A program made the translations under genes and the position numbers. 64,000 nucleotides of DNA from a candidate division WOR-1 bacterium RIFOXYB2_FULL_42_35 (lineage in GTDB: Bacteria > Margulisbacteria > WOR-1 > O2-12-FULL-45-9). The stretch lies in NCBI GenBank assembly GCA_001771545.1, contig MEUC01000011.1:10071-74070 (forward strand). The letters are read 5' to 3'. The number at the start of each line of letters is the position of its first letter. Within the stretch, counting starts at the first letter, position 1. Under the pieces are notes generated by a model. It did not search any database, was not told the DNA's origin, and worked only from the letters and a program-made list of their open reading frames with translations. Shown piece by piece: positions 24,623-46,101 of the stretch.

Positions 24623-26788
24623 ATGGGCATTTCACTTGATGGTATTAAATCATATAACCCCGGACTCTACACGGCCTTAAAATCTCTTGATAGTGACAAG
24701 GATGGTTTAATCGAACTTCCTGAATTGAATCCTCAAAAGATTCCTATCCCAGAACTTCAAGCAGCTCAAACAAAATCATTACAAGAAGCTTACAAATCAA
24801 TTTTAGCCCTTTTAGAGATAAAAAAACATCCAACAACAACAACAACAACAACAACAACAACAACAACAACAACAACAACAACAACAACAACAACTATTTC
24901 TGGTCAAGAAGTTGTTAATCATTTGGTTAAGTACTTTAGTCAACAATACGAAAAATCTGCTCGGCAAATTGAATTGGATCTCTTAGAAGATTTTCGCGGT
25001 AAAAAAAGTGGTCTAGTTGGAGACAGCACTGGTTACAACATGAGGGGTTACACAGCTTTTGGGGGAAATCCTCTGACTCCATTTCCTGAAGCAGCAGCAA
25101 CTCTTACTGGCGGTCTTTTCCATAGCCTTGGTTATAATCCAGGAAAAGACATTAACATGCAAGCCTTTAAAGAAAATTATCCCGCAAACTTTGATGCCTA
25201 TCTTAGAGGAGTTAAAAAGATCAGTTCAGGCTGGATATCCTATGTCACCTATCCCTTATCAATGGCCACAGGAATGCTACTCAATGGCGCAGTAAAAGAG
25301 ACAAACCCTGGAGGTTTAGTTCGAGCTGTCTGTGTGCCCGGAGCAATTACTGCACAGGCCAATATTGATTTTCACAATGGTGACGATCCAAACAATGCTC
25401 ATATTGGAGCATTGTATGGGATAAAACTAGTTTCAGCAGGAAAAACAATGATTAGTATGATTATTGACCATTTACGTGGCTCATTAGGCGGGGCTGTCTT
25501 TCGCATCTTAGGTCCAAACGATCTCTTCACATGGAAAGGGAAGATATTACGACGACCAATCTTAGGATCTGTTTCATTAGAAGAATACAAAAAGAACCTG
25601 CAAATGTTTATCGACAAATTCAAAAAAGGACAACAAAGGATTATTATCAGTGTTCCGCTCAACACCCAACTACTACTTTCCCCTATAACTGAACCAGAGG
25701 CTCATTATGCTGATGAAAGGAAAATCTATCCTAATGGCTACACCCCAACTAAAGCTGCTTATGCAGTTAGTCCACTTGCTTGGTTAGTCAATAACCGCAA
25801 CCAGAACATCCATCCTGACAATGTTTATAATCATCAGGAAATGAAAGAATTTGGCAAAGTATATCAAGGTTATCGAGAAATTACTTACAGGGCAGCCAGC
25901 AAATCAACTAAGGTTATTACTGTAGATCCTAACGACCAACTTGAGGCCTTTTTCAAAAAGTTCCAAGCAGAAGGTGAATATAGAATAGGTCGTTGCGTCT
26001 TTAGAACAAAAGAAGACTTCTTAAGTTCTGACATGATTCATCCCGGCCCATTACTTTATACTTTAATCGCTAAATGGATTGCTGAGGATCTTAAAGCAGC
26101 AGGGGTAAATGTCCCTAACACTCTTGACCTGGATAAAATGCTGAAAGAGCATCCTAAAAAGTTTCATGAAACATTTTGCCCAGAAAAAAGAACAGCAGCT
26201 GATATGGAAAACATAGGAGCTATTATTAGTGCCATAACAAAAACCGCTAAAACAGGCTCTCCTTTTTACAGCATTAGTAATTTGATTGGGTTAAAAGCTG
26301 CTGCTTCCATCTTCTTTAGTACGGCAACAAACTTTAATGGTTCTTACAGCTATGGCCCTGGTTGGCGTTTAAATTTAGCTGCCCGACTAAAAGTTGCTTT
26401 ACCTTTTGGTTATTTTCAACTTTCCCCAGACCTTATTAATATAGGGGCTTACGCTTCCTATTTAACCGATGAAACAGGTAAGGAGGGTTGGGAGCTTAAT
26501 ACCTATGCCAGATCAGAAGTAACCTTATCCCCTATTTCTGGAGCTGACACAGTAACAGGGGCTGTAGGCTTTGGAACCTATAACTTGGAAAACCTTTTCC
26601 TAGATGAAAGTTACATTATTAGAGAACAACTTGGCTTTAACGCAAAAATTAGGTACTGTTCTAATCCTTCTGCCACCAACCTTGTGAGAGGGTTATGCGT
26701 TCATGCCGAAACAGTCGTCCGCCCATTTGCTGGAACAAAAAATGATGCTTTATTCACTGGATTTCTAGGCATTAGCTATGCAAGATAA
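24623..26788 (+). CDS. EF-hand leader + poly-Thr + SGNH/GDSL hydrolase-like domain + beta-rich C-terminus
   Basis: DSDKDGLIELPE loop, T21, VGDS, GPND and DMIHP catalytic blocks; amphipathic C-terminal strands; SD AGGAG. Confidence 0.7.
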   Translation: MGISLDGIKSYNPGLYTALKSLDSDKDGLIELPELNPQKIPIPELQAAQTKSLQEAYKSILALLEIKKHPTTTTTTTTTTTTTTTTTTTTTISGQEVVNHLVKYFSQQYEKSARQIELDLLEDFRGKKSGLVGDSTGYNMRGYTAFGGNPLTPFPEAAATLTGGLFHSLGYNPGKDINMQAFKENYPANFDAYLRGVKKISSGWISYVTYPLSMATGMLLNGAVKETNPGGLVRAVCVPGAITAQANIDFHNGDDPNNAHIGALYGIKLVSAGKTMISMIIDHLRGSLGGAVFRILGPNDLFTWKGKILRRPILGSVSLEEYKKNLQMFIDKFKKGQQRIIISVPLNTQLLLSPITEPEAHYADERKIYPNGYTPTKAAYAVSPLAWLVNNRNQNIHPDNVYNHQEMKEFGKVYQGYREITYRAASKSTKVITVDPNDQLEAFFKKFQAEGEYRIGRCVFRTKEDFLSSDMIHPGPLLYTLIAKWIAEDLKAAGVNVPNTLDLDKMLKEHPKKFHETFCPEKRTAADMENIGAIISAITKTAKTGSPFYSISNLIGLKAAASIFFSTATNFNGSYSYGPGWRLNLAARLKVALPFGYFQLSPDLINIGAYASYLTDETGKEGWELNTYARSEVTLSPISGADTVTGAVGFGTYNLENLFLDESYIIREQLGFNAKIRYCSNPSATNLVRGLCVHAETVVRPFAGTKNDALFTGFLGISYAR
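24833..24892 (+). repeat. perfect (ACA)20 trinucleotide repeat
   Basis: Read directly; followed by ACT, giving 21 Thr. Confidence 0.95.
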
Positions 26789-26853
26789 TAATTTAAAAGA
26801 TTCTAAAGGCGTTCACTAGTTTTAGCCTCTAAATTCTGCTAAAATTACAATTG

Positions 26854-27651
26854 ATGCCTATTCAAGAGAAATGCCGAATCTTAGACCACCAGAAAGTTGC
26901 CCCTTTCCATTTTAAAATTACCCTTGTTTCTAAATATATCTCTTCACACGCAGAACCAGGCCAATTTGTTAACGTCCGCTGCTCACAAGATTACGATCCC
27001 CTACTTAGACGACCACTAGGAGTTCATAACGTTAACCCAGAAGAAGAAATCTTTGAATTGCTTTATGAGATCGTTGGCAAAGGGACAGAATTACTTTCCA
27101 AGCATCAAGTTGGACAGGAAATAGATATCCTTGGTCCTTTGGGGAACGGATTTGATATCAATAAAGACAAAAAGGTTGCTATTCTAGTTGCTGGCGGAAT
27201 GGGCGTTGCACCTCTGCTCTACTTAGCTAAATTCCTACGATCCACGATCCACGATCCACGATCAATCCACATCCTAATTGGCACTAAGACAAAAGAGCTG
27301 ATTCTTGCTGAAAAAGAATTTAAAACTTTAACAGATAACGTTATCGTTTCAACAGATGATGGATCTTACGGCAAAAAGGGTTTTGTTTCTGATGTCCTAC
27401 TTGAAACTTTGGACCCAAGAACCATTGATGCTTCAGCAACCATATACGCTTGTGGCCCCAAACCAATGCTCAAGGCCATTGCAGAAATTGCTTTCCAAAA
27501 GAAGATCGACTGCCAAGTTTCCATGGAAGCTAGAATGGCTTGCGGGATTGGCACTTGCTTGGGTTGTGTGATTAATACGACAAAAGGTTATCAAAAGGTT
27601 TGTGACGACGGCCCGGTTTTCGACGCAAAGGAGATTGTATGGACAAGCTAG
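26854..27651 (+). CDS. pyrK: dihydroorotate dehydrogenase electron transfer subunit
   Basis: LRRPL, GGMGVAP, CGP and MACGIGTCLGC..CDDGPVF motifs. Confidence 0.96.
   Translation: MPIQEKCRILDHQKVAPFHFKITLVSKYISSHAEPGQFVNVRCSQDYDPLLRRPLGVHNVNPEEEIFELLYEIVGKGTELLSKHQVGQEIDILGPLGNGFDINKDKKVAILVAGGMGVAPLLYLAKFLRSTIHDPRSIHILIGTKTKELILAEKEFKTLTDNVIVSTDDGSYGKKGFVSDVLLETLDPRTIDASATIYACGPKPMLKAIAEIAFQKKIDCQVSMEARMACGIGTCLGCVINTTKGYQKVCDDGPVFDAKEIVWTS
27235..27262 (+). repeat. 4 x 7-bp repeat (CCACGAT) inside pyrK
   Basis: ctacgat ccacgat ccacgat ccacgat, translated RSTIHDPRS. Confidence 0.9.
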
Positions 27652-45383: not shown

Positions 45384-45461
45384 GGTTAGAAAGTAGATAG
45401 TGGATATTAGAAATTAGGAATGAAAAACACTATCCTATTTTCTACACTCTACGCTCCACTT
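45384..45461. repeat. inverted degenerate heptamer array (xxTAGAx / xTCTAxx)
   Basis: gttagaaagtagatagtggatattagaaattagg ... ctatcctattttctacactctacgctccac. Confidence 0.65.
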
Positions 45462-45462
45462 T

Positions 45463-46101
45463 TTACTTCACTAAATTAATTCTCCAGGGCAAAGATCTTC
45501 TTACTATTTCTTCCAGACTTTTATTCCCTTTTATTTCCGATGTTGGCTGGGGCATCTCTTTTAACCTATTATTTTCTGGCCCAACATTTAGATCATCAAG
45601 GTCTGGTGGCAAAACTCTTATGACTGGCTCAGCTTCTCTTTTTACCGGTTGCCATTTTATAGGAAGCTTAATATCAGGTAAACTTGCTGTTTGCTCTGGG
45701 TATGCTTTTAAATCATCTGGGTCTGCAGGCAAAGCTCTTATGACTGGTTCTTCAAGGGCTTCTGGGTTCGCTGGTATAGCCCTAAATACCGGTTCTTGCT
45801 CATCCGGGTTTTCTGGCAAAGCTGGCAAAGCTCTTATGACTGGTTCTTCAAGGTCTTCTGAGTTCGCTGGTATAGCCCTAAATACCGGTTCTTTAAGCTC
45901 ATACGGGTTTTCTGGCAAAGCTGGCAAAGCCCTTATAACAGGTTCTTTTCCCACCAGAGAGACAAAGTCCTGGAAATCCTCCCCACTAATTCCTGGGTTT
46001 TCTGATTGGCAAGTTTTTCCATCCTTATTCTTATCCAAAGCCTTTACTGCCTTTTTGAAACCAGGCTTAACATCACCCGTATTTATACATAAATCTCCCA
46101 T
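45463..46101 (-). CDS. orphan protein with EF-hand leader and EPV(I/F)RA(L/I)PA tandem repeats
   Basis: DKNKDGKTCQSE loop; about 6 repeat units; SD AGGAG. Confidence 0.75.
   Translation of the reverse strand: MGDLCINTGDVKPGFKKAVKALDKNKDGKTCQSENPGISGEDFQDFVSLVGKEPVIRALPALPENPYELKEPVFRAIPANSEDLEEPVIRALPALPENPDEQEPVFRAIPANPEALEEPVIRALPADPDDLKAYPEQTASLPDIKLPIKWQPVKREAEPVIRVLPPDLDDLNVGPENNRLKEMPQPTSEIKGNKSLEEIVRRSLPWRINLVK

Follow-up and report, generated by a model that had tools for sequence, protein, structure and literature searches.

What do two proteins with different cargo share when the first residues of each align, without a gap, from the initiating methionine? The question is raised by genes A and B, which lie on opposite strands of a 64,000-nucleotide stretch of DNA (the window; position 1 is its first letter) from the candidate division WOR-1 bacterium RIFOXYB2_FULL_42_35, an uncultured inhabitant of groundwater. 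The 51 contigs of the source genome add up to 1.79 Mb, with a completeness of 93%; relatives carrying the same families – A-type and B-type – bear the name Candidatus Saganbacteria. An initial annotation had taken the shared N-terminus for a lineage-specific leader that marks substrates of an unrecognised secretion or surface-assembly pathway. Predicted structures and alignments indicate that it is a small folded EF-hand-type domain and not a cleavable leader; its single most likely function, which we put forward tentatively, is a calcium-dependent role linked to export. The two genes and their ribosome-binding sites are as follows.

24623-26788, + strand: gene A, 721 amino acids (open reading frame, homologues, predicted structure)
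45463-46101, - strand: gene B, 212 amino acids (open reading frame, profile searches, predicted structure)
24610-24615, + strand: Shine-Dalgarno sequence of A (AAGGAG), 7 nt before the ATG (read from the sequence)
46114-46108, - strand: Shine-Dalgarno sequence of B (AAAGGAG), 6 nt before the ATG (read from the sequence)

Each gene begins at the first possible start codon past an in-frame stop, in open frames of 722 (A) and 218 (B) codons. Position-by-position comparison confirmed all twelve in-register identities reported for the first 34 residues (M1, G2, P13, G14, A18, K20, L22, D23, K26, D27, G28 and E34), with both reading frames at the coordinates given above. Residues 23-34, described at the outset as a calcium-binding loop, do follow the canonical 12-residue EF-hand pattern in both proteins – DSDKDGLIELPE in A and DKNKDGKTCQSE in B – positions 1, 3 and 5 being D or N, position 6 G and position 12 E; position 8 of the B loop is threonine instead of a hydrophobic residue. 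Structure models place helices on both sides, giving in A and in B the helix-flanked loop of an EF-hand. Neither protein has a hydrophobic stretch within its first 60 residues, and no Sec or Tat signal (charged n-region plus h-region of at least 10 residues; twin arginine) was seen by eye in A, in B or in any of 22 B-type clusters, in agreement with the earlier statement that A and B lack a Sec signal.

The domain comes in two versions, here called the B-type domain and the A-type module.

45946-46101, - strand: B-type domain, residues 1-52 of B (AlphaFold2, 22-sequence alignment)
24623-24829, + strand: A-type module, residues 1-69 of A (19 of 69 columns invariant in a 4-member alignment)

Given the 22-sequence alignment, AlphaFold2 predicts B residues 1-50 with a per-residue confidence (predicted local distance difference test, pLDDT) of 94-98 and the rest of B as disordered. 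The predicted layout is a strand (residues 5-7), a helix (13-22), the loop (23-34, including a strand at 29-31) and a second helix (40-50). A profile of 65 positions, built from five B-type N-termini and searched against 1.84 billion representative proteins at E ≤ 0.001, gave 59 matches. Twenty-two are full-length, and all of these begin at protein residues 1-8: 17 are new, and five are the model's own sequences or cluster representatives. In 21 of them the match is a single stretch; P0012 carries a second, internal copy. The other 37 match in two to seven stretches, at internal positions and over the loop part of the profile only; judged by stretch number and partial coverage, they are probably generic calcium-loop repeat proteins. 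Two cysteines, C5 and C31, are invariant in all 22 sequences and sit on the two predicted strands, C31 at loop position 9; at least 90% keep M1, E34 and F43. The module is present in about 6 of 65 genomes of the class. Two further candidates were set aside: a B-type match in genome G127 lies inside a CorA-like membrane protein, and Bdellovibrio matches of a pattern scan are internal to a TPR protein and thus due to chance.

The A-type family has four members: A itself, P0002 (53% identical to A) and two paralogues in genome G063, which represents another family of the class. They share the start MGI[SN][IL].. and, judged by eye, lack a hydrophobic N-terminus. The loop at residues 23-34 is followed by a conserved helix in which Q49, L53, Q54, Y57 and L61 are invariant; the module contains no cysteines. 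Conservation in these proteins is among the highest over the first 69 residues, where identities are 40-67%, compared with 28-55% for the whole protein. The designation of A and B as orphans thus holds in part: A has three homologues, and the N-terminal domain of B recurs in 22 clusters. The idea of a leader fares similarly. The segment is N-terminal, lineage-specific and joined to diverse cargo, and further members found by hidden Markov model (HMM) searches are strictly N-terminal and lack a Sec signal, not generic EF-hands at random positions; it is, on the other hand, a folded domain of about 50 residues and not a leader peptide.

Kinship with EF-hands is suggested by the order helix, 12-residue DxDxDG...E loop, second helix, and by the nearest neighbours in Pfam (EF-hand_1/5/6/7), the PDB, Foldseek and the ESM Atlas, which are EF-hand proteins. 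Individual scores are low. Pfam EF-hand matches reach 11.8-14.7 bits for A (E 0.022-0.12) and 12.6-14.3 bits for B, below the gathering cut-offs of 25-30 bits (PF13202 and PF00036), and the Pfam EF-hand models gave no match in the source genome at E ≤ 0.01. With the B-type domain as query, the top Foldseek rows are all EF-hand proteins (weak, E ≥ 1.4), the best VIA-align Z score is 2.7 (weak), a PDB sequence profile reports calsensin at E 0.0085, and the Atlas neighbours are EF-hand clusters at 0.81-0.86 (a lead only). Three features separate the module from an ordinary EF-hand: it consists of one hand only, the place of the partner hand being taken by an N-terminal strand; in the B-type it holds the invariant cysteine pair, one member of which occupies loop position 9; and it always stands at the extreme N-terminus of multi-domain proteins. 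By these models and profiles the module is a new EF-hand-type domain, in two lineage-specific versions.

Two known families invite comparison. Bacterial Excalibur modules (PF05901) are small and extracellular; they combine a DxDxDGxxCE loop with another conserved cysteine that precedes it. The B-type layout C...PG...LDxNxDGxxC follows the same idea; its loop glutamate, however, is at position 12, compared with position 10 in Excalibur. Membership was rejected: the isolated domains gave no match at E ≤ 10, and the Excalibur model found none at E ≤ 0.01 in any of those, among 146 genomes of the phylum, that hold B-type genes. Dockerin membership was likewise rejected, since there is a single loop only – dockerins have a duplicated calcium-loop segment – and no dockerin appears among the Pfam matches at E ≤ 10. 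A dockerin-like function can nevertheless be framed, in which lone EF-hands pair and so join the modules of A and B, or two copies of one; the proline-rich tail of B would then be tethered to the barrel-anchored esterase A described below. EF-hands usually do pair, and when the source genome was scanned with a profile made from both N-termini and one A homologue, A and B were the sole matches. Yet in the models the N-terminal strand fills the place of the partner's loop strand, and genomes with the B-type are mostly without the A-type, and vice versa; we regard docking as highly improbable. A complex prediction for the A and B modules with calcium scored 0.02 and is not used as evidence either way.

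How common are EF-hands at protein starts in these bacteria? Of the 65 class genomes, 27 have a Pfam EF-hand_5 match. The search gave thirty loci, of which 28 were examined, two that duplicated the same proteins being left out. In 27 of the 28 there is no hydrophobic N-terminus, and in about 19 (counted by eye) the loop begins within the first 35 residues, in several exactly at D23. Many of the proteins are small, consist entirely of EF-hands and have no signal peptide; an N-terminal loop is trivial in these because the whole protein is EF-hands. There are also large orphans in which an N-terminal EF-hand is the sole Pfam match (856, 1527, 2130 and approximately 995 amino acids), and a protein of 677 amino acids in genome G054 whose only Pfam matches are an N-terminal EF-hand pair and whose start, MSISFNAIKNQ.., resembles that of A. 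The five loci – L095 (G016:C1), L096 (G048:C18), L097 (G019:C2), L028 (G030:C24) and L027 (G054:C205) – encode proteins of 677-2130 amino acids with one EF-hand in four cases and a pair in the G054 protein, all without a signal peptide. By eye, the His...Cys pair at the end of the G054 protein (..SHRGH.., ..GSCRS..) resembles that of a caspase. Among the LRR paralogues of the class, most have lipoprotein or membrane-anchor N-termini.

A and B might not be specifically related at all. Each could have begun independently with a generic EF-hand, which at an N-terminus naturally puts its loop near residue 20-25, and in that case the common register would imply neither a shared function nor a shared pathway. 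Much of the common pattern (A..K.LD.DKDG....E) is expected of any two EF-hands, and the identities beyond M1-G2 and P13-G14 lie in a stretch, A18 to E34, that any of them would have in common. Other small EF-hand proteins of the class (L067, L071) also have their first loop at D23. In a crude set of 1643 genes from the source genome, 50 of 1,348,903 pairs of N-termini reach at least 12 in-register identities in 34 residues; most are true paralogues and a few look like chance. Cross-matching the models gives weak scores: E 0.18 for B with the A-type model, and E 9.4 for A with the 22-sequence B-type model, in whose domain table A ranks about 13th (within noise). In the source genome the B-type profile did not report A at E ≤ 0.01.

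Several comparisons favor a specific relationship. BLASTP aligns A with B at E 0.005 (9 of 16 residues identical, positions 13-28). The motif [LIVMF]D.[DN].DG occurs four times in 8856 six-frame open reading frames, and two of the four occurrences start at residue 22 of A and of B. Aligning the N-terminal profiles with hhalign gave a probability of 78.8% (E 1.7e-5) with four-sequence profiles; enlarging the B profile to 22 sequences raised it to 92.3% (E 5.6e-7). The alignment is in register over residues 7-30, and with the larger profile a three-residue gap follows the loop. B is the top non-self match of the A-type model, the AlphaFold models of A and B agree in the succession of their elements (strand, helix, loop strand, helix), and both proteins combine the lack of a signal with envelope-type cargo. 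Taken alone, the similarity of A and B is evidence beyond chance of borderline to moderate strength; a specific common origin of the two N-termini is likely, not established, and we consider independent origins from generic EF-hands unlikely.

What the modules are attached to bears on where the proteins work. Past the module A runs into 21 threonines and B into proline-rich repeats: the initial annotation was right that both continue into low complexity. The remaining parts of the two proteins are these.

24833-24895, + strand: poly-threonine linker of A, 21 Thr (T71-T91), encoded by (ACA)20 + ACT
24953-26197, + strand: GDSL/SGNH-like hydrolase, residues ~111-525 of A (invariant columns, Pfam on a homologue, structure matches)
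26285-26779, + strand: predicted 8-stranded beta-barrel, residues 555-719 of A (AlphaFold2, Foldseek, Atlas)
45592-45945, - strand: proline-rich EPV[IF]RA[LI]P repeats of B, predicted disordered

In A, the residues G133-D134-S135 and D470/H473 are invariant in the four-member alignment, and the catalytic GDS and D-x-x-H blocks are therefore present. Protein A itself has no Pfam hit above cut-off, PF00657 included; on its homologue P0063, Lipase_GDSL (PF00657) scores 25.9 bits against a cut-off of 23.6. Independently, in the ESM Atlas, residues 111-525 of A align to SGNH/GDSL clusters with a template modelling (TM) score of 0.64 (matched row), and together with the Pfam match this identifies the hydrolase fold. 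Residues 554-721 align to OMP_b-brl clusters (TM 0.53-0.62). The AlphaFold2 model of A is poor overall (mean pLDDT 55.6); its barrel has eight long strands, with pLDDT mostly 62-84 in blocks of 10 residues and 46-47 in three blocks that contain loops. The best Foldseek match of A is EstA (E 1.6e-5), accompanied by Ail, OmpX, NspA, acyloxyacyl hydrolase (AOAH) and a GDSL esterase. No paralogue of the hydrolase or of the barrel was found in the source genome at E ≤ 1. On the strength of the Foldseek and Atlas matches, the Pfam match on a paralogue and the invariant residues, A is best read as an EF-hand module that a poly-threonine linker joins to a GDSL esterase, with a small outer-membrane barrel at the end; a Sec signal is lacking.

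In EstA of Pseudomonas aeruginosa (PDB 3kvn), too, a membrane barrel at the C-terminus follows a GDSL esterase. A differs from it in having no Sec signal, about 8 predicted strands compared with 12, and an additional N-terminal EF-hand module with its poly-threonine linker. Membership of the type Va autotransporters was rejected for A: none of the four family members shows a Sec signal by eye, about 8 strands are predicted, and the structural matches are to small barrels; the Pfam model Autotransporter (PF03797) gave no match on A at E ≤ 1. The (ACA)20 tract is a perfect trinucleotide repeat, and the poly-threonine linker is missing in the homologue 53% identical to A. The public gene call of protein A (P0001, 621 amino acids) begins past the repeat, at L101, and omits the EF-hand module. 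In genome G063 a giant surface protein (>1190 amino acids; L017, G063:C17, 1-4470) adjoins the A-type paralogues; by eye its end is a putative FlgD-Ig or type IX secretion system C-terminal domain, and the protein that follows looks PorV-like at its N-terminus (putative).

B-type cargo is more varied. Pfam matches over cut-off are FGE-sulfatase in four proteins, LRR_4 in three (with one more just under) and OmpA in one (50.2 bits); more LRR-like and FGE-like members were recognized by eye, and the other tails have no assigned domain, among them the proline-rich repeats of B. A near-identical variant of B has one repeat pair fewer. The repeats contain RALPALP (twice), RALPADP and RVLPPDL; motifs of the RALPALP type presumably fit the R-x-x-P-x-x-P pattern of SH3-domain ligands. 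Immediately upstream of B (46184-46855, - strand) a gene encodes 223 amino acids with a very lysine-rich N-terminal half and a proline-rich tail; the product has a weak match (E 0.002, below cut-off) to EF-Tu domain 2 or an oligonucleotide-binding (OB) fold. Elsewhere, at L029 (G018:C3, 3177-4726, - strand), three tandem paralogues of 120-154 amino acids all begin M[DG]NMCVDPYAKVGG, a divergent B-type start; two of them share the C-terminus ..ILPTVDFTK. They adjoin two radical-SAM genes in a layout reminiscent of peptide-precursor arrays.

Among the attached parts, the OmpA peptidoglycan-binding domain, the predicted outer-membrane barrel and the internalin-like LRRs are of an envelope type, and the presence of Omp85/BamA in the genome indicates a cell with an outer membrane (diderm). 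It is nonetheless conceivable that the proteins stay in the cytoplasm, the module serving there as a calcium- or metal-binding domain for regulation or sensing. The two cysteines – loop position 9 being a metal-ligand position – would then form a soft-metal or redox site and not a disulfide. The lack of signal peptides fits such a role, as do the many small multi-EF-hand proteins without signal peptides in the class, and cytoplasmic signalling proteins often contain FGE-sulfatase and LRR domains. The cysteines are conserved more than the calcium ligands: several B-type members have degenerate loops, such as KQGKKG and RPDKKG, so calcium binding is not universal in that family. Nor was a Dsb-type oxidation system found, neither DsbB nor VKOR having been detected in the 93%-complete genome (DsbA was not searched for), which leaves no known machinery for a periplasmic disulfide. 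The OmpA domain and the predicted barrel, by contrast, have no known cytoplasmic role, and the even number of cysteines in 17 of 23 B-family proteins is a weak fit to pairing. We consider a cytoplasmic role rather unlikely; it and independent origins of A and B are nonetheless both serious rivals to the export reading.

If A-type and B-type proteins do work outside the cytoplasm, as their cargo leads us to infer, then the lack of a Sec or Tat signal makes the module the most likely determinant of their exit. On this basis it is possible, and we propose with reserve, that the module directs a Sec-independent, calcium-dependent export. The lone EF-hand would be unfolded in the calcium-poor cytoplasm; the protein would leave N-terminus first; on meeting calcium outside, the EF-hand would fold and then be clamped by the cysteine pair; and the folded module would hold the protein outside, much as RTX repeats do at the other end of type I substrates. 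A candidate channel would be the flagellar-type export apparatus that is kept throughout the class. RTX repeats bind calcium; disordered at the calcium level of the cytoplasm, they fold once outside, and like the module they are calcium segments on proteins without a Sec signal; they are, however, C-terminal nonapeptide arrays exported C-terminus first by ABC/MFP/TolC machinery, whereas the module is a single loop at the N-terminus. MIX, FIX and RIX, the N-terminal marker domains of polymorphic effectors in type VI secretion, offer a second parallel: a conserved N-terminal domain that precedes interchangeable C-terminal cargo, without a Sec signal. Their setting differs in that neither VipB nor a phage-type sheath was found in the source genome; here the families are compared by general description only.

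Which route could such a module use? The initial annotation had envisaged a tag for export or targeting, to be recognized by a shared promoter and by co-occurrence with a secretion system. The anatomy agrees with such a tag; linked genes and a shared promoter were not found, and in the genome the match is limited to A and B. The regions upstream of A and B show no common promoter motif by eye, and their scores against a sigma-28-like promoter (9 of 12 for A, 7 of 12 for B) are at background level. A-type and B-type loci have no conserved gene neighborhood and no linked secretion genes: the ABC-MFP-TolC genes of the window (35934-40113) and the RND genes next to B do not recur in other loci.

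Several routes were considered and rejected. A double-glycine leader fails because Peptidase_C39 (PF03412) was not found in the 93%-complete genome and A-type proteins do not conserve Gly14. As for type VI, contractile-injection and type IV routes, VipB and phage sheath proteins were not found in the genome and CagE/VirB4 is sub-threshold (19.5 bits). Three secretins are present. A link to radical-SAM enzymes was dropped: two such genes stand beside the three B-like paralogues in G018 and one near the A-type genes in G063, and no close orthologue stands beside A or B in the source genome. Eukaryote-type N-myristoylation of the MG start was discarded too: the consensus does not suit D6 in A or D3 in B, and residue 2 varies in the family.

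This leaves the flagellar-type apparatus as the sole system detected that takes uncleaved N-terminal signals; as a route for the module it is speculative. Its genes lie in two clusters.

C50:5755-15514 (L033): flagellar-type cluster 1, with FliK, FlgE/F/G-like, FliM, FliN, FliO, FliP, FliQ, FliR, FlhB, FlhA and a sigma factor
C38:18800-26900 (L100): flagellar-type cluster 2, with FlgI, a sigma factor, FlgB, FlgC, FliE, FliF, FliG, FliH, FliI and FliJ

FliG of this genome has 153 amino acids, with N and M domains and no C-terminal domain, and flagellin was not found in the genome. Across the class FlhA is present in 62 of 65 genomes, and Flagellin_N and Flagellin_C in one of 65 each; as a control, the flagellin searches matched in Escherichia coli, Bacillus subtilis, Caulobacter and Thermotoga. 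The apparatus may be flagellin-less and possibly non-motile. Since FlhA is near-universal in the class, no correlation with the rare modules is possible.

A published account of early flagellar substrates (PMC8983047) describes a hydrophobic N-terminal signal, with small non-polar residues at positions 3-7 from the N-terminus, and a gate-recognition motif, F...hydrophobic, that lies 30 residues or more into the protein. With L/M-C-I/V at residues 4-6 and FxxFV at 43-47, the B-type resembles the pattern given there. In the rod and hook proteins encoded by the genome itself, F...[LIVMF] lies at residues 30-57. Unlike early flagellar substrates, B carries F43 as a core residue of helix F in the model, and the A-type has no phenylalanine there. 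By our estimate about one protein in three would carry a gate-type F...hydrophobic motif by chance; because it is this common, and because F43 belongs to a helix core, the B-type motif is a lead and not evidence.

A number of observations weigh against export through the module. The N-terminal secretion signals known so far do not resemble a stable folded domain, and degenerate loops occur in part of the B-type family. FGE-sulfatase and LRR domains occur in cytoplasmic proteins as well, and the C-terminus of A (..SYAR) lacks the terminal aromatic residue that is usual for barrel proteins. To these must be added the missing DsbB and VKOR, the weak HMM link between A and B, the background-level promoter scores, the lack of a conserved neighborhood, and the rarity of the module (about 6 of 65 genomes) compared with the apparatus (62 of 65).

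A bolder form of the export proposal joins the two subjects. Saganbacteria would have kept the flagellar basal body and export gate, lost flagellin and the torque end of FliG, and turned the remainder into a general exporter for which EF-hand modules – the A-type, the B-type and those heading many large orphans of the class – act as calcium-gated tags of export and retention; we think this improbable. If it held, the tags would represent a novel class of secretion signal, and the apparatus a new free-living example of a flagellum turned secretion machine. In the titles and opening lines of abstracts on Saganbacteria and Margulisbacteria, no account of the module or of a flagellin-less apparatus appears, and the main text of the Saganbacteria genome paper (PMC6349859) contains no mention of the terms flagell, secretion, motil, calcium or pili. 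Were the module an export mark, it would explain the exit of barrel or peptidoglycan-binding proteins that have no Sec signal, set an N-terminal, calcium-dependent principle beside the C-terminal one of RTX, and provide a purpose for a flagellin-less apparatus conserved throughout the class. Were it a calcium-binding domain only, it would still be a new and rare EF-hand subfamily with a cysteine clamp.

Near-perfect promoters of the sigma-28 type ([GT]AAA-N15-[GT]CCGATAA) do occur 33-50 nt upstream of four other, uncharacterized genes, at C19:11052, C25:3955, C46:18987 and C22:4077, and these genes are candidates for the regulon of the sigma factors in the flagellar clusters.

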